Shown here: positions 8,440-60,890 of the stretch, piece after piece
Layout: each line of letters begins with the position of its first letter
Position numbering within the stretch: position 1 is the first letter of the stretch
The notes under the pieces: model-generated
The model's input: only the letters and a program-made list of their open reading frames with translations
Told to the model about the DNA's origin: nothing
Database searches by the model: none
Translations under genes and position numbers: made by a program
DNA from: Mytilus edulis
Taxonomy: Eukaryota
Assembly: GCF_963676685.1 (NCBI RefSeq)
Contig: NC_092353.1
Span: forward strand, 20,435,307-20,499,306
Length of the DNA stretch: 64,000 nucleotides
Reading direction: 5' to 3'

Positions 8440-9600
8440 TAATTCACAAACTCTTTTATTATATATATCTTTATTCTCATAAAGCCAATGCATTACATCG
8501 GTACAGAGATAACAGATACAACAATAAATATTTACAATATGTACAAAACAAGCGAGAGAGGTTACAAAAGTTACAAGCCAGGAGTACAAACACTAGTATT
8601 TATATTTTTTATAAAAGAACAAAGCTTCTTCAGAACTGGTTTTCTTGTACTTGACATAAGTTCAGAGAATTTAACTGTATTTTGCCGTTTTGTAAAATAT
8701 TCAGTTAAAAACTCTTTGCGTTTTTGATGGAAAAAATTGCATTCAAATATAAAATGATATTCGTCACCTATTTGTCGAATGTTACATAGACTGCAAAAGC
8801 GGTTTTCTCTGATCACGTTTTGCCATCATCCTGTTTCAATCGGCAGCTTAGTATTAGTCGTTCTAAATCGACAAAAAACAATAGCGTCTTTGAAGTCCAA
8901 AATATTAAAATATTCTTCGAATTCCAAGTTTTTCTTAAAAATTTTGTAGTTAATACCTTTTGGTGAATTTTGAATGAGGGAATTCCAGTTGTGAAAATAT
9001 TGATCTAGCAATCTCTGCTTTATAACAGTTTTTAACCATTCTTTATTAACAAAATTTTGTGACTCCCATATGTATGAGAAACCACAATCTTGAAATATTT
9101 TTTGTATAAACAGGATCCATTTTATCTGGACATTATGGTGCTCGTTCATATGACGAGAAAGTTGATATAATATGAAGGAAAACTTTGCTTGTTTACCGGA
9201 TATCAAATTTGCCCAGAATAGTACTGTTCGAACTTTAATATCTATTTCGATCGGATGACGACCTAGTTCCCCGTAAACCATATAATTTGGCGTTGAGGAT
9301 TTCAAGTTTAAAAGAATTTTACAAAATTTTAAATGAATCTTTTCCAGGATATCATTATTACCAAAGCCCCATATTTCGCACCCATACAATAGAATGGGCT
9401 AAAGCCTTGATCATTTTGTCAAAAAGGTCAAGCTGACATTTAACAGAAAGCTGATACATCCTTCCTATTTTCAGGACTTCGTACATGGCTTTTAAGGCCT
9501 TATCGGATAAATATTTTTTAGTCATATTAAAGTTTCCTGTTTTAGTAAAAACAATACCCAAATAGTTAAACTGCTTTACTAAACCATTTTAAAGAGGTTA
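8440..9600 (-). mobile_element. Degraded 5'-truncated non-LTR (LINE) retrotransposon, 3' portion: RT C-terminal region plus a C-terminal Cys/His motif
   Basis: Three broken ORFs (9358-9561, 8826-9389, 8571-8816). MYGCEIWG...KFCKILL aligns with TLYGCEVWG...IKFIKEIL of the intact RT ORF at 58918-60771; CSLCN..GDEYHFIFEC resembles CLSCN..EDEYHFFSIC. Frames are disrupted. Confidence 0.7.
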
Positions 9601-11439: not shown

Positions 11440-11830
11440 TTACATTTCGTACCTGTTGTAGATATGAAAAAAATATGGCAGACAAACAGTGGTCCTCAGA
11501 TGATAACTTGGAGGAAATATTGATACGGAATCAACTATCCAACAGGCTGATGTCACTGTAAACCCTGATACGAAATCAACTATCCAACAGGCTAATGTCA
11601 CTGTAAACCCTGACACGAAATCAACTATCCAACAGGCTAATGTCACTGTAAAGCCTGATACGAAATCAACTATCCAACAGGCTAATGTCACTGTAAAGCC
11701 TGATACGAAATCAACTATCCAACAGGCTAATGTCACTGTAACGCCTGGTACGAAATCAACTATCCAACAGGCTAATGTCACTGTAAACCCTGATACGGAA
11801 TCAACTATCCAACAGCTGATGTCACTGTAA
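11440..11830. repeat. 48-bp tandem repeat, ~8 copies (acgaaatcaactatccaacaggctaatgtcactgtaaaccctgat)
   Basis: Direct reading; the - strand ORF 11440-11781 is just the periodic translation VDFVSGFTVTLACWI x6. Confidence 0.9.
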
Positions 11831-14800: not shown

Positions 14801-15339
14801 AGCAACTTGTATTGAGTAAATGTTATGCAGTAAAACTTTATAATCCGTCTAATAGTCACAGGGCTCCACATATTGCAAACTATCATTTTACTAGTAAATA
14901 TCAAATATTAAAACCATCATTAGAATCATTCGAAAGAATAAAACACAATGTCAAAAATAATTGATTTTAATGAGTTGAATATTGTTAACAGTTGCCATGT
15001 GTGCAACTAACAGTGCTATGGTTAAATATGATACTCCTGCATGGGCAAATATAATTAAGACAACGCACAGACAACTCCCTACAATAACACTGAAAACCAA
15101 TTTGAGTAACTAACTTTCTAAAACCTGGATCTTTGAATAAAATGGGAAAATATCATTACATAAAATGTAGTATGCTCAATGAAATTGACCCTTTTCAGTT
15201 ATTGAAATATTTAATTGTTGCACTATGTCTACAAATATGAACCATCGTATTTTATTTTAGGTCGTCTTGCTTACATAAAATACAGGTAAGTATGAACATC
15301 ATATATTGGAAGAAAAGAATTAAAGCTAAAAAACTCTCG

Positions 15340-15700
15340 TAATTTACTGTCGATATGCACGTCTACATAGTATGTCCTTAATATCTAAAAAGGTTTCATG
15401 AAATTCTGTTGTGTGGTTTCAGAGGAGTTGCGATGACAAACTGTTGCAGTAGTATATTTAGGCAAATAAGTTTAAAGGGGCGTAACCTCTAGAAAAAAAA
15501 TTGTATCGTAATTTCCTGTCGATATGCACATCTACATAGTATGTCCTTATTATCGACAAAGTTTCATGAAATTCTGTTGTGTGATTTCAGAGGAGTTGCG
15601 ATGACAAACTGTTGCAGTAGTATATTGGGGCAAATAAGTTCAAAGGGGATTAACTCCTAGAAAAAAATTGAATCATAATTTCCATAGTATGTCCTTATTA
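15340..15700. repeat. ~188-bp tandem duplication, ~2.3 copies
   Basis: 15340-15527 is near-identical to 15528-15700 (tttcatgaaattctgttgtgtg.tttcagaggagttgcgatgacaaactgttgcagtagtatat). Confidence 0.8.
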
Positions 15701-16065
15701 TCTAAAAACTCCTCTGAAACCATACAAAGTCAGAAATATTTGTGATATGACGTATAAATGTAATGTTTTGTACTTCCTGAATTTGTTTTTGAAACAATCT
15801 TTTTTCCACAGAAAATGCCAATTTTTGAGAAAATATCCAAATTACCGTTATCGATCCGGGTCTTATACGCTTTCGCATGCTCAGTCGACGTACTGCCCGC
15901 AGAATTTAACTTTATATATGAATAATATAGGACAATGGAGTAGATTAAAAATTACACCATTTCCGGCCCTTTTGTTTTCCACATAATTAATATTCCCAAT
16001 AATTAAAAAGTTGCGGGTCGAATCCGATACCGATTCCAATAGTATATTTCACATAATTACCTGAT

Positions 16066-16074
16066 CCCTGTTAC
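16066..16074. repeat. Left 9-bp target-site duplication CCCTGTTAC of the FLYWCH element
   Basis: Identical 9-mer at 17188-17196, immediately outside the inverted termini. Confidence 0.6.
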
Positions 16075-17187
16075 CGGTGCTTTTCATTTGCGCCAATTGG
16101 CATTTCATTTGCGCCAAAAAAATCTTTCATTTGCGCCACAAACCATATTTCATTTGCGCCAAAAACTAAATCTTTCATTTGCGCCAATATTACAGGTAAG
16201 TACAGGTAAATACAGGTAAATACAGGTAATAATAGTATAAAACATAAAAAATTTCAAAAAGTCTTTCAATAATGAAGAATCATATTCCACTGAGAAATCA
16301 GTTATCATAAAATCATGTTAAAACCTGAATACAACCGAAAAGAAAGCACTATACACTGGAGTACATTATTGAGACATTTGTTAGCACTATAGTAAAGTTA
16401 CAAGTCTGTTCTGGCACAAAATTTATAAGCAACGGTCTTGATGTAGTCATGCCTTGAAATTTCCCCATGCCATGTTTCTCCATAAGAAAGTGAGTTTTCT
16501 CTTTCTCCCATCGTCGAACTGCAGCCGGTGTGTCCATAGATCTCATTTTGATGTATGTAGTAGCCTGAATCTTCTTTACAACGTCAACATAAATAAACAT
16601 GTTTGGATGTTTTGAATAAAATTGTTCATTAAAATGTGCATGGAATGACTCCGAACTCTGACTCTGAGTTGTTGAGATTCTACTTTCTTCTTTATTCCAT
16701 GGTTGTGCTCGTTTAAAGTTTTTATAATTGTTTTGCTGTCCGTATCAGTCGTAATCCTGGCTTTACAGGTTTTTTCGGTACACCTGATGGATTTTTCTCC
16801 ATTTTTTAAAACGCTTGATAACCTATATATGTGGTCATCAAATATCACAGAATTCTTCCCTCTGTTTGTCTCAGATTTGACTATGTCCACCTTGACACCT
16901 CACACTGGACTGGTCATGTGAACACTATATATATAATTATAACCTTAGTGACTCTCAGTTTTGTAAATAGAAATGAGTATGAACTCACACATATAACCAA
17001 GGGGGAGTTATGTACAAACAGAAAACAAAATAAATCGTAAATAATATTTATCTTTTCCGTTATATTACCTGTCATACCTGTAAAATGGCGCAAATGAAGG
17101 GTTTTCTTTTGGCGCAAATGATATATAACCTTGTGGCGCAAATGAAAGGTTTGATTTTTTTTTAAATTGGCGCAAATGAAATGCGCC
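16075..17187. mobile_element. ~1.1-kb non-autonomous DNA transposon with inverted repeats, likely MULE-related; ~23-bp imperfect terminal inverted repeats plus subterminal repeat arrays, carrying a FLYWCH zinc-finger ORF
   Basis: Left terminus cGGTGCTTTTCATTTGCGCCAATT matches rc of the right terminus GGCGCATTTCATTTGCGCCAATT. Five TTCATTTGCGCCA and four TACAGGTAA repeats at 16081-16240 are mirrored by TGGCGCAAATGAA and acctgt repeats at 17040-17187. Flanked by a perfect 9-bp direct repeat. Confidence 0.6.
16576..16890 (-). CDS. FLYWCH-type zinc-finger domain ORF (…RGKNSVIFDDHIYRLSSVLKNGEKSIRCTEKTCKARITTDTDSKTIIKTLNEHNH…); may continue into ORF 16349-16600
   Basis: Matches the FLYWCH pattern F/V..s.RGk..l..dgy.Y......g...(W/R)C....C.aR........i......HNH. 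Confidence 0.55.
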   Translation of the reverse strand: MDIVKSETNRGKNSVIFDDHIYRLSSVLKNGEKSIRCTEKTCKARITTDTDSKTIIKTLNEHNHGIKKKVESQQLRVRVRSHSMHILMNNFIQNIQTCLFMLTL

Positions 17188-17196
17188 CCCTGTTAC
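17188..17196. repeat. Right 9-bp target-site duplication CCCTGTTAC
   Basis: Direct repeat of 16066-16074. Confidence 0.6.
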
Positions 17197-17214
17197 ATAA
17201 TCTGTACATTCCGC

Positions 17215-17700
17215 CTCTGTCAGGCGCACACCAAACGGTGTATTGAGGATTTGCTATTAAGGGGGCTCCTTGGTATAAATCAATTTTTTTTTCTAATATA
17301 GGATTTCGCTATATTTTTTTTATAAATGAACTTTATCATATACTTAAAGGAAAAATGAAATAAAAAGATGGAGTCACCGTTCATTTAAGCTCACAATCTG
17401 CCTCTGGAAGAAGCATACATTTTTGTTAATGTCCTTTTTTTCTGTTGAACTAATAGGAGAAATAGATGTAATATCGAAATAAAAAAATAACCTAATTACA
17501 GAAATTGCTTAAATTTTACAACTATTTAGTTTATGTACAGCTTATTTGAAAACAATAATAAAAAATATAGGTCACCGTTGAGTTAAAAAAAGTTATTTCA
17601 AATTTATGGCATTTTTGCACCAAAGAGAGATAATTTGGAGCTTTTTCAATGATATAAACATTTTAAAAGTCATCTGGGGCCAAACTGAATAAATTTTTTG
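17215..17700 (-). repeat. Copy B of the ~520-bp interspersed repeat, inverted relative to 180-720
   Basis: See 180-720; lies immediately next to the right end of the FLYWCH element. Confidence 0.6.
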
Positions 17701-17920
17701 GGTTGATTTTTGTACCATATCATTAAGTAATAATAAATGGTGTAATAAATAAAACTTGTAATGAAAAAATAAAGGTTTAATTTTTTGCTGAAATTTTTTT
17801 ACCCAGGAGCCACCTTAACACGGGTAATAATCACACCTGAACTTCGTGATTTTACCAAAATGACAATACGAATTCTAAAAATTCAGGCTAAAACTAAGGG
17901 GTAAGTTCTTTAATTCAGTC

Positions 17921-24300: not shown

Positions 24301-24356
24301 ACGTGTATCTATATTTCTCGCCATTTGCTAAAATAGTTTGTCAGTCTTACAGCAAG

Positions 24357-25645
24357 ATGGACAGACAACGGATGGAAATGAAAAATTATGGATTATTGAT
24401 ACACAATCATATTTTGAAATTGAGAATGTTGTTAAACAGACACAGACATAAACGAATAGATCACAGAGTGCGCACGGTATGGGTAAGGGATTGGATAGGT
24501 AGAAGATCTCAGTTTGGTTTTTATGCACAGCTGTTGGATGAATTGAGATGTGAAGACACCGTTTCTTTCAAAAACTTTTTGAGAGTTGATCCAACCATGT
24601 TTCAGGAAATTGTTAATAGATTAACACCAAGGCTACAAAAGAAAGACACGTGGTACCGAAAGGCATTGCCAGTTGGTCTTAAAGTAGCAATAACCCTTCG
24701 ATATCTAGCCACAGGAGACAGTTATCATTCACTTATGTATTTATTTAGAGTGCCGCACAACACGATATCCAATCGTGTAGTACAAGTTTGTGAAGCAATT
24801 ATTTCCGAGTATGCTGAAGATGTTATCAACACACCTACGGAAGAAGCTGGATGGCTAGCCATTTCGCAAGAATTTAGTGATATGTGGCAGTTTCATCATG
24901 TGCTAGGTGCACTAGATGAGAAACACGTTGCTATCAAATGTCCGGCTGGTGGTGGTTCTAAATACTATAATATAAAGGATTCCATTCTATAGTTCTAATG
25001 GGCTTAGTAGACGCTAATTATAAATTTAAATGGGTTAACTTTGGCGCACCAGGTGCTTGCTCTGATGCACAAATTTGGAATCAGTCAGACTTAAAAAATC
25101 ATATAATTGATGAGAATATGCACATACCAAAAGCAGAGCCTCTTCCGAATGATGACAAAGACATTCCGTACTTCATCGTTGGTGACGACGCGTTCGCCCT
25201 CAGAAGTTGGCTAATGAAGCCCTTTTCTAGGAGGAACATGACCCTTGAAGAGAGAGTTTTTAACTACAGGCTATCGCGATCACGAAGAGTTGTTGAAAAC
25301 GCATTTGGGATACTTGCAAATCGATTTCAATGCTTACTTTCAACTTTAAAGCAAGAGCCTAACAATGTCGTATCCATTATTCTGGCCTGTGTTTGTCTGC
25401 ACAATATAATGAGGATAAGATATCCAGGTGATCAGAACATTTTGTTAGACAGAGAAGACGAGAACCACCATCTTTTACCTGGAGCTTGGCGAGACGAAAC
25501 AAACCTGAAGGACATTGATGATGTGAAAGATCGCAACTATCCTAGCAGGCAGCAAAACAACAAAGACTGTATCTTAAACACTATTATTCGTCACCTGCAG
25601 GAAAAGTTCCATGGCAAGAACGAATGGTTCAATAACGTTTTTTAA
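24357..25645 (+). pseudogene. HARBI1/PIF-like DDE transposase (DDE_Tnp_4), ~430 codons, split by a frameshift near 24966-24980 (ORF1 GTG-start 24303-24992, ORF2 24998-25645; the homologous reading actually resumes in the second frame at ~24971 with YKGFHSIVLMGLVDANYKF)
   Basis: LPVGLKVAITLRYLATGDSYHSLMYLFRVPHNTIS (HTH region) and HVLGALDEKHVAIKCP...YYN(R/I)KGFHSIVLMGLVDANYKF..FGAPGACSDAQIWNQS...IVGDDAFALRSWLMKPF (catalytic D...D...GD region) match the Harbinger transposase architecture. The tataatataaagg stretch at 24966-24980 looks like a 1-bp indel. Confidence 0.8.
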
Positions 25646-58917: not shown

Positions 58918-60890
58918 TTATACAGATGTTCTTAATAAAAGACAATCATTAATATACTTTATGGTGATTTTTATAATGACTGGTAGACTGCTATTTAAAA
59001 GTACAGTCAAATGATTTAGTGTTATAGTGGACTGCAATTTAATAAAATTGAAATTAAGATTTTTATTAATATTTTGTATATAGGTATACCTTAATGATTT
59101 ATAGCATGGACAGATTGAGAAGAAATGGTATTCATCCTCAATTTCTTGTCTGTTACAGGATAAGCAAATGCGTTTACTTCTTTCAATGTTGGTATAACGC
59201 CCTCTTTCAATTGCTAGGGAATGCGTACTTAGTTTAAATTTACTGAAAACTGATCGGTCGGTTTTTAATTTACATATATCAATATATGGGGGCCTTTTTC
59301 TAATTCTTTTAGTATGACAAAAGAAATTAAATTTTTCACATTTATTGATAGAACAATTCATAATTTGATAAGCCTGGTCATAGATTCTTTGTTGGATACT
59401 ATTTATGTGATATTTTAAATTAAAAGTATTAAAAGTGAGATGACCAAAACCTAATTTATTTAACCAGTCTTTTACAATGTTAACCCATTTACTTGTTTTC
59501 TCTACATTATTATATATTTTATGGACTAAAGTGTTAGGCGAGTTTACAATGTGGTTTAGAAATTTTAAAGCTGAAAGGTGAATTTTAAAGTACAAAGGGA
59601 TTCTGTTTGTCTCAGTTAAACAGGCTACATTTGTTGTTTTGCACTGTACTCCTAAAATTTCTTTAATAAATTTAATATGTAAATGTTCAAATGGATCTGA
59701 ATCTTTGAACACTTGGCTTACACCCCAAACTTCACATCCATAAAGAGTTATTGGAACAACTAAAGTATCAAATAATTTTTCAAGCATACTGCAGGAATTA
59801 TCTAAAGAGACTGTTTTTTTAATTTTAAACCAAGCTTTTCTTCCTTTTTCCATAAGATTTTTTGTTGAATGACTTAAACTTCCTGAACAATTTATAGTTA
59901 TTCCAACGTAACAAATAGATTTAACAGTCTCAATATGTTCTTTTTCTACTTTAAAATAATTACAATGAGATTTTCCATTAGAATTGAATATTATAATTTT
60001 TGATTTTTGTTTGTTAACATCAAGTTTCCATAGGGAACAAAATTTAGTTAACTCATTTAGTGCATTTTGTAGCCCTTCTTGGGTTTCAGACAATAAAATA
60101 ATGTCATCTGCATATAATAATGATGTTAGTTTAACATCTCCTATAATCATTGGTTCAGTGTTTGCATGATCAAGGTCATTTACAAGGCCATTTATATAAA
60201 TATTAAACAAAGTGGGGCTAAGTACATCCCCTTGTTTTACTCCGCAATTTGATATAAATTCATGGCTAATACCATTTTGAAATTTAATTCTGCATTTGTT
60301 GTCATTGTACATTGATTGGATGACGTTAAAAAGTTTGCCTGGAAGTCTGTTTTGGAGTAGAATGTAGAATAAACCCTCCCTCCAAACAGTATCAAAGGCT
60401 TTTTGCAGATCTATAACTGCAGCAAAATTTTTCTTTTTTTTAGTTTTATATTTGTCTACAATAGACTTTAATGAGAAGATATGATCTGCTGTTCTAGCTT
60501 TTTCTTTGAAGCCGATCTGATTTTCACTTATCAAATTATTGGTGTTAATAAACTTCATAAGTCTAGTGTGTATAATTTTATTGAATAATTTTCCCAAATT
60601 AGAAGTCAATGAGATACCTCTATAATTAGAGGGGTCAGATTTGTTCCCCTTTTTATGAATTAAAGTAATCAGACTTTTGTTCCATAATTTTGGGAAGCTG
60701 CCTTTCATAAATACTAGGTTGAAAAGTTTTAATAGGGGTTCTAATAATACTGGCATACCGCATTTAATCATTTCGTTAGAAATTAAGTCTTCAGCTGATG
60801 ATTTACCATTTTTAAGTGTTTTAACTGCATTTAAAATTTCAGCTGGCTGAATTTGTTTATTAAATTCGTTGTCAGAGTTGCATGTATTTA
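58918..60890 (-). mobile_element. 5'-truncated non-LTR (LINE) retrotransposon with an intact reverse-transcriptase ORF (CDS 58918-60771, 617 aa; the frame stays open to ~60890 but there is no endonuclease domain)
   Basis: RT motifs PSNYRGISLTSNLGKLFNKIIHTRL, AAVIDLQKAFDTV, QGDVLSPTLFNIYIN, LLYADDIILLS (YADD box); the C-terminal domain is LYGCEVWG followed by C-x2-C...DEYHF..C.C. Confidence 0.9.

Follow-up and report, generated by a model that had tools for sequence, protein, structure and literature searches.

Phantom transposases are defined by the presence of a FLYWCH zinc finger together with a MULE domain (PMC3169594), and the Muta elements have been placed in the Phantom family by Dupeyron et al. 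(PMC6446971). Target-site duplications have a length of 8-11 bp in Mutator-like elements (MULEs) and of 8-10 bp in the Phantom group (PMC6446971), and Muta1 gave both 8- and 9-bp duplications within the same assay (PMC5225508). In the present work we analyze an element carried by a 64,000-nucleotide stretch of Mytilus edulis DNA (contig NC_092353.1, forward-strand positions 20,435,307 to 20,499,306), which is referred to as the window and numbered from its first letter. A preliminary description of the window, made from the letters without database searches, had proposed a small FLYWCH-encoding element with inverted ends and a 9-bp target-site duplication, likely a non-autonomous MULE and either a deletion derivative that kept only the DNA-binding domain or a captured host FLYWCH fragment. 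From the comparison with longer relatives we are highly confident that positions 16075-17188 hold a copy, non-autonomous and with an internal deletion, of a Mutator/MULE DNA transposon that is compact in its full form (~2.35 kb). The copy is a dead relic, Phantom-like in carrying the marks of a FLYWCH plus MULE element, well preserved but ordinary, and its mechanism is conventional.

The autonomous parent and the internal deletion

A parent of ~2.35 kb with the same ends as the window copy was recovered from metagenome and sequencing-run contigs. These longer relatives encode a transposase with FLYWCH and MULE (PF10551) domains, which bears out the proposal that the window copy is a non-autonomous MULE. 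The contigs carrying the FLYWCH protein P0001 (L001-L010), which come from several sequencing runs and metagenomes, contain a FLYWCH open reading frame (ORF) followed ~200 bp further on by a 361-aa MULE ORF, while L011, from a Baltic Sea metagenome project, contains the C-terminal part of the transposase together with the element's 3' end. Technically, the composite parent of ~2,347 bp was obtained by joining L001 to L011. The intron of L001 is canonical (CAAG/GTAATT ... TTCTTCAG/GA, slashes marking the splice junctions), and splicing joins the two ORFs in frame to give a protein of 462 aa.

When the 462-aa parent protein was scanned against Pfam, FLYWCH was found at residues 7-64 (E=3.1e-12) and MULE at residues 184-280 (E=1.4e-12), the PF10551 match by which a MULE is recognised reaching 48.3 bits against a cut-off of 27.6 in the protein reconstructed from L001. 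By eye, D186 (in VFVDGTF), D252 (IHIDFEQ) and E376 (GPESFHAHF) were picked as candidate catalytic residues, and C273-H276 in CCRFH (residues 272-276) as a candidate CxxH motif. Past the transposase stop codon there are tandem repeats of ~30 nt (GGTTTTAGCATGACTTGTATGATTTTATCGA-like), located at 1960-2063 in L001 and at 890-1015 in L012, a shortened relative described below. As a separate observation, the contigs L002-L007 from six sequencing runs all begin 80-86 nt upstream of the transposase ATG, and this shared start suggests a branch point of the assembly graph at which the autonomous copy and numerous non-autonomous ones part.

The gene of the element lies on the minus strand, so that the 5' end of the element is its right end in the window. 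Read in this orientation, the window copy is collinear with the longer relatives except for an internal deletion of 1,097 bp (see the three alignment blocks in Table 1), which speaks for a deletion derivative: the ends of the autonomous element are present and the interior is collinear with it. The MULE region itself is missing from the window copy, and the copy is tied to the parent because all kept segments are 93-97% identical to it at the nucleotide level. In the parent the tetranucleotide CGGA flanks the deleted segment on both sides (GAGTTCGGAAAGC and GGACCGGAGTCATT). The missing 1,097 bp correspond to residues 82-375, and with them two of the three predicted catalytic residues, D186 and D252, are gone, as is the candidate CxxH motif. 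The earlier idea that only the DNA-binding domain had been retained does not hold, as the last ~87 codons of the transposase and the 3' untranslated region (UTR) were also kept.

MULEs are able to capture fragments of host genes (PMC5225508), and a short element whose FLYWCH ORF lacks a catalytic domain is what could be expected if a MULE shell had picked up a host FLYWCH gene fragment in the manner of a Pack-MULE, the second possibility raised in the preliminary description. We find this very improbable, as no internal segment departs from collinearity with the autonomous element, leaving no interior of host origin, and the FLYWCH exon, the 5' UTR and the C-terminal tail all come from the transposase gene. 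The finger belongs, as exon 1, to the transposase gene of the element itself, and the host-capture proposal is dropped in favor of the internally deleted copy.

Deletion derivatives are not restricted to the window. The sole match of a metagenome scan performed with the terminal repeat, contig L012, shares its ends with the window copy but was shortened by another internal deletion, and from this separate deletion it follows that the family repeatedly produces deletion derivatives. The window copy is a clean and complete example of such decay of a compact FLYWCH-MULE element, with ends, binding-site arrays, duplication and microhomology junction, and the analysis yields in addition a reconstructed autonomous parent of ~2.35 kb and its 462-aa transposase, with relatives in mussels, decapod crustaceans and aphids.

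Terminal repeats, motif arrays and target-site duplication

The inverted repeats have cores of 23 nt (16076-16098 and 17165-17187) that are complementary to each other at 91%. Similarity between the ends is not limited to these cores, as an alignment of one end with the other spans ~120 nt at ~79-80% identity; the terminal repeats are therefore long and imperfect. The start GGGCGC is found in four of four copies with different flanks, and the window copy, L001, L008 and L012 have the longer start GGGCGCATTTC in common. The other end reads ...AAAAGCACC in three copies (window, L011 and L012), with G as the last base in the window and L011 and T in L012. The termini GGGCGC...GCACCG thus recur in copies with different flanks, and they recur also in a related family represented by the contig L015. 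In this connection we observed that three diverged families (L001 8-13 with L011 1281-1286; L015 1862 and 3684; L023 295 and 2316) have a G at both extremities of the sense strand, which reads GGGCGC... at its start and ...GC[A/G]CCG at its end. The terminal repeats are therefore consistently non-complementary at their outermost position.

The mirrored 13-mer arrays of the preliminary description were fully recovered: TTCATTTGCGCCA occurs five times at the left end and four times at the right end, and nowhere else in the 64 kb. By chance 0.08 matches are expected, and none of 100 shuffled sequences reached nine. Long terminal inverted repeats with subterminal tandem repeats, a feature by which MULEs are recognised, are accordingly present here with a core of 23-24 nt and four to five 13-mer copies. 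When the two ends were aligned with each other, and the window copy with its relative in Mytilus coruscus, mismatches were found in 18 of 169 motif columns versus 53 of 161 spacer columns (Fisher p~1e-6, from comparisons that are not mutually independent). A core CATTTG[C/G]GC is common to the terminal arrays of four diverged families. The motifs are thus far better conserved than the spacers between them. The 13-mer sites would most likely be read by the FLYWCH finger, and the shared core would then be a concrete candidate for the DNA target of a transposon FLYWCH finger. As the DNA specificity of FLYWCH domains is poorly characterised, this family might offer a small system for its study.

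Directly inward of the 13-mer arrays there is, at both ends, a second motif, ACAGGTAA, which is oriented towards the interior and present in two to four copies. Four copies per side had been proposed; this is correct for the left side (four ACAGGTA at 16192-16228) but not for the right side, where there are two. The motif is kept in the M. coruscus copy (L021 3194-3210 and 5392-5409) and in the family of contig L022 (765-790), whose transposase is only 56% identical. One copy, CAGGTAAGT, agrees perfectly with the 5' splice-site consensus (CAG/GTAAGT). It is a rather improbable proposition that the arrays act as functional 5' splice sites used by host transcripts entering the element from either side or by its own 5' UTR. 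If true, splice-donor ACAGGTAA copies would be a built-in device shaping the interaction of a transposon family with host genes. The motif could be a second protein-binding site, or a splice donor, and we consider it a lead and not a finding.

With respect to the target-site duplication, the proposed 9-mer CCCTGTTAC is indeed present on both sides (16066-16074 and 17188-17196), but the duplication is more likely to be 8 bp long. The ends of the element were set at 16075-17188 by comparison across copies, and with these ends the duplication is the 8-mer CCTGTTAC; the ninth matching base may be the element's own terminal G/C that coincides with the next flanking base. The contig L015, which carries both ends of an element from the related family, has a perfect 8-bp duplication (ACTTGTGT), whereas the 9-bp register fails. 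Compared with the transposase tail in the window, the C-terminal protein fragments of this family reach an identity of ~56-64%. Furthermore, the flanks of the M. coruscus copy L021 match at six of eight positions in the 8-bp register and at none of nine in the 9-bp register. Taken from these sequence comparisons, a duplication of 8 bp is the more likely one here, and 9 bp would be possible. The 9-mer flank is not part of a longer duplicated host sequence, as the identity stops there.

The preliminary description had named related copies with a duplication other than 9 bp as evidence against a MULE, and L015 is such a copy. Such a length does not weigh against a MULE, however, because Muta1 makes both 8- and 9-bp duplications and MULEs in general 8-11 bp, a range that includes either length here. 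An 8-bp duplication is also the hallmark of the hAT and P superfamilies, and with 8 bp as the most likely length one could assign the element to one of these instead of Mutator. We give this assignment hardly any weight, since the Pfam scan of the parent yields only FLYWCH and MULE (PF10551) above threshold and no hAT or P family, the homologues are annotated as MULE-domain proteins, and MULEs such as Muta1 give 8-bp duplications as well.

With the base composition of the window, 9 nt at fixed positions would match by chance with a probability of ~1e-5, and 8 nt with one of 4e-5. This figure, together with the nine 13-mer copies where 0.08 are expected, and with independent contigs from many samples being 93-97% identical to the window copy, makes a chance resemblance or an assembly artefact, which nothing specific favors, a practically negligible explanation.

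There are, on the other side, observations that weigh against our reading of the locus as a transposed deletion derivative. Two metagenomic contigs with both ends, L012 and L023, show no duplication. No paralogous empty site was found in the window and the fetched loci; the right flank does resemble a repeat at 100-680 of the window (77%), but the match starts 69 nt past the point of insertion. A search of database records for another copy with the CGGA junction found none, so that the window derivative may be unique and not part of an amplified family. Finally, the parent copies, taken from metagenome and sequencing-run contigs, are not demonstrably from the genome of the window. The lack of a duplication in L012 and L023 is likely, though unproven, to be due to chimeric assembly. 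L012 was left out of the evidence on duplication length as its flank is an inverted-repeat element, pointing to a probable chimeric short-read assembly, and L023, of a TARA family, is uninformative in this respect, having homologous termini and no duplication. The left flank of L012 (66-100 and 244-276) is an observation of its own: it forms an element of ~210 bp with perfect inverted ends of ~33 nt (TTTTTGGGATGGATTTAGAATGTTAATCTCCTA ...), probably a miniature inverted-repeat transposable element adjoining the transposon, or an assembly join.

Table 1 Features of the element in the window and alignment blocks shared with the composite parent (blocks in element and parent coordinates).
Feature	Position	Strand	Remark
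Whole non-autonomous element, 1,114 bp	16075..17188	-	Collinear with ~2,347-bp composite parent (L001 + L011)
Left duplication copy, CCTGTTAC	16067..16074		Starts at 16066 if 9 bp; boundary from ends of independent copies
3'-terminal inverted repeat core, CGGTGCTTTTCATTTGCGCCAATT	16075..16098	+	Imperfect repeat reaches inward to ~16209
Five copies of TTCATTTGCGCCA	16083..16186	+	Start-to-start spacing 21-25 bp; presumed transposase (FLYWCH) binding sites
Four tandem TACAGGTAA copies, 10-bp period	16191..16229	+	Matches 5' splice-site consensus
3' UTR remnant	16230..16397	-	Scar at 16299-16303: 126 bp of parent's tandem-repeat region gone (composite 2000-2125)
Transposase C-terminus remnant (residues ~376-462, ESFHAHFNEQFYSKHPNMF...ARTDL*)	16398..16649	-	Stop 16398-16400
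Deletion junction, 4-bp microhomology CGGA	16650..16653	-	Overlapping alignment blocks
Transposase exon 1 remnant (parent residues 1-81)	16654..16890	-	FLYWCH finger 16699-16872
5' untranslated / presumed promoter region	16891..17065	-	95% identical to L001 + L008
Two ACAGGTA copies	17066..17081	-	Mirror left array; 2 rather than 4
TTCATTTGCGCCA, four copies (1 mismatch in one of them)	17086..17180	-	Start-to-start spacing 24, 24, 34 bp
5'-terminal inverted repeat core, GGGCGCATTTCATTTGCGCCAATT	17165..17188	-	Holds small internal palindrome GGCGCA...TGCGCC
Right duplication copy, CCTGTTAC	17189..17196		Starts at 17188 if 9 bp
Block 1	Element 1-539 vs parent 1-540	Gene orientation	95.2% identity
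Block 2	Element 536-885 vs parent 1638-1999	Gene orientation	93.1% identity
Block 3	Element 891-1114 vs parent 2126-2347	Gene orientation	96.9% identity

Coding remnants, proposed origin and surroundings

The FLYWCH finger named in the preliminary description was confirmed, the minus-strand ORF at 16576-16890 matching Pfam PF04500 with E=1.6e-11 and 44.7 bits (cut-off 23.6). An N-terminal zinc finger of the WRKY/GCM1 type is a further MULE feature, and it is thereby found in the window copy as well as in the parent (E=3.1e-12). The zinc ligands C-x4-C...H-x-H are intact in the window copy. The last 24 codons of the ORF are an out-of-frame read-through of the C-terminal region of the transposase, and the ORF ends in these unrelated codons because the deletion junction is out of frame. 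When the other frames were translated, a second minus-strand coding remnant appeared, reading ...SFHAHFNEQFYSKHPNMFIYVDVVKKIQATTYIKMRSMDTPAAVRRWEKEK... and, after a frameshift, GEISRHDYIKTVAYKFCARTDL followed by the stop codon; the frame of this C-terminal part is shifted by a 10-bp deletion at 16466/16467. A search with the joined remnants returned P0001, the FLYWCH ORF, at 86% identity, and P0002, a fragment of a MULE-domain (PF10551) protein, at 94% identity over the C-terminal part.

The former start codon of the transposase at 16888-16890 is ATG in L001 and L012 and has become GTG in the window copy. There is an in-frame stop codon just upstream of it, and the next in-frame ATG comes only past the finger. 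It follows from the GTG start, the out-of-frame junction and the 10-bp deletion that the copy is coding-dead and gives no functional protein. This bears directly on whether the truncated FLYWCH-only product could be a functional repressor of transposition, or the ORF a domesticated FLYWCH gene. In repressors of the KP type the DNA-binding finger is kept and the catalytic core is lost, and the window copy resembles them in having kept the finger with its zinc ligands while the catalytic core was removed. We nevertheless regard a repressor or a domesticated gene as quite improbable, as the start is arranged in the way just described, further indels have accumulated in the copy, and no other copies of the ORF are on record; for the exact products of both window ORFs, no second copy is on record either.

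The coding-dead deletion derivative may be accounted for by well-known steps. Transposases of MULEs bind repeated subterminal sites through an N-terminal WRKY/GCM1-type finger, synapse the ends and make a staggered cut. In the present family the transposase would recognise the ~120-bp imperfect repeats by way of the phased TTCATTTGCGCCA sites, most likely through its FLYWCH finger, and the ends would then be synapsed and a staggered cut made at integration, leaving the 8-bp (possibly 9-bp) duplication. The window copy, or its ancestor, would have been inserted by transposase supplied in trans. As to the deletion itself, we infer from the CGGA junction, and from what is generally known about class II elements, that it was probably made when repair of the double-strand gap left by excision was interrupted or proceeded through microhomology; such gap repair is the classic route by which class II elements spawn deletion derivatives. 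Since the ends are intact and the duplication is perfect, the copy is structurally still mobilisable. By its divergence from the parent copies (3-7%) it would be a relic of moderate age.

The surroundings of the element are AT-rich (~31% G+C), eukaryotic and crowded with transposon debris. Such a composition and load of repeats are in keeping with a bivalve, and taken with the Baltic Sea origin of L011 and the 84-94% identical copy in M. coruscus they would make a mytilid mussel the likely host. ORFs for reverse transcriptases of the long interspersed nuclear element type are found on the minus strand at 58918-60771 (617 aa with a YADD motif) and at 8826-9389 (a 187-aa fragment), from which we conclude that the window is transposon-rich animal DNA. 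Two adjacent plus-strand ORFs at 24303-25645 (229 and 215 aa) resemble a Harbinger/PIF-type DDE transposase split by a stop codon or a frameshift. Directly to the left of the element, at 15337-15708, there are tandem repeats with a unit of ~170 bp, the units being 90% identical, and to the right an interspersed repeat of ~560 bp begins 69 nt from the element (17257-17818 versus 100-680 on the minus strand, 77% identical and inverted). A tandem repeat at 11440-11781 (minus strand) encodes the reiterated peptide TVTLACWIVDFVSGF and is probably a minisatellite.

Relatives and comparison with described systems

A genomic copy in Mytilus coruscus (L021) has the same ends as the parent and 84-94% nucleotide identity to it. 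At the protein level the homologues of the parent transposase include MULE-domain proteins of M. coruscus and M. edulis (52-65% identity), decapod proteins (48-49%) and many FLYWCH plus MULE proteins of aphids (36-43%, E down to 1e-95). A more distant relative of 37% identity on the 371-kb contig L013 showed no convincing terminal repeats, a look-up of the M. edulis proteins P0022 and P0020 returned no record, and no relative by sequence was found among solved structures. As there are reports of Phantom elements in insect viruses, viral contigs were scanned with the protein and the terminal repeat, and nothing was found. In a scan of bacterial and archaeal sequences there were 12 single matches, all on GC-rich contigs and with one motif copy each, which were rejected as chance matches.

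As mentioned above, the FLYWCH plus MULE architecture is the mark of Phantom transposases, for which a protein of ~460-500 aa is expected, and the 462-aa parent protein has both the architecture and the size. Judged by this architecture and by its similarity to the aphid FLYWCH plus MULE proteins, of a kind that PMC3169594 groups with Phantom, the parent would be Phantom-like. In the summaries of Marquez & Pritham 2010 given in PMC3169594 and PMC6446971, Phantom elements are described with an N-terminal FLYWCH and a MULE domain in ~460-500 aa, with duplications of 8-10 bp, with variable terminal repeats that often have a repeated substructure and, for aphid Phantoms, with a minisatellite after the ORF, all of which has its counterpart here, the last one in the 3' UTR repeats of L001 and L012. 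As a difference, molluscs are missing from the Phantom host phyla named in PMC6446971, where the mollusc MULEs form separate groups without FLYWCH.

Muta1 of Aedes aegypti (PMC5225508) resembles the element in having a terminal palindrome followed by subterminal tandem repeats (12 bp in Muta1 and 13 bp here), in its long terminal repeats and 8- or 9-bp duplications, and in its non-autonomous families that share the ends and have heterogeneous interiors (PMC5225508). It differs in the arrangement of the repeats, which in Muta1 are separated by linkers of 3-4 bp, whereas the 13-mers here are 21-25 bp apart (up to 34) and are followed by ACAGGTAA. The likeness is one of described features, and Muta1 moved in the assay, while the present family is known from its sequence.

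The Tm1 Mutator/Foldback elements of root-knot nematodes (PMC3169594) also combine FLYWCH with MULE, and they have composite repeats built from short motifs, duplications of mostly 9 bp (8-10 bp) and many non-coding derivatives (PMC3169594). Their termini are longer, Foldback-like and of variable length, in contrast to the ~120-bp repeats and the simple deletion derivative seen here.

With respect to its decay the window copy is best compared to the maize Ds (derived from Ac) and dSpm elements and to KP, derived from the Drosophila P element. These belong to other superfamilies (hAT, CACTA and P, respectively), and unlike KP the window copy cannot express its DNA-binding fragment. Like all three, it has kept the ends and part of the coding region and carries microhomology at the deletion junction, and like them it would depend for its mobility on a transposase supplied in trans.

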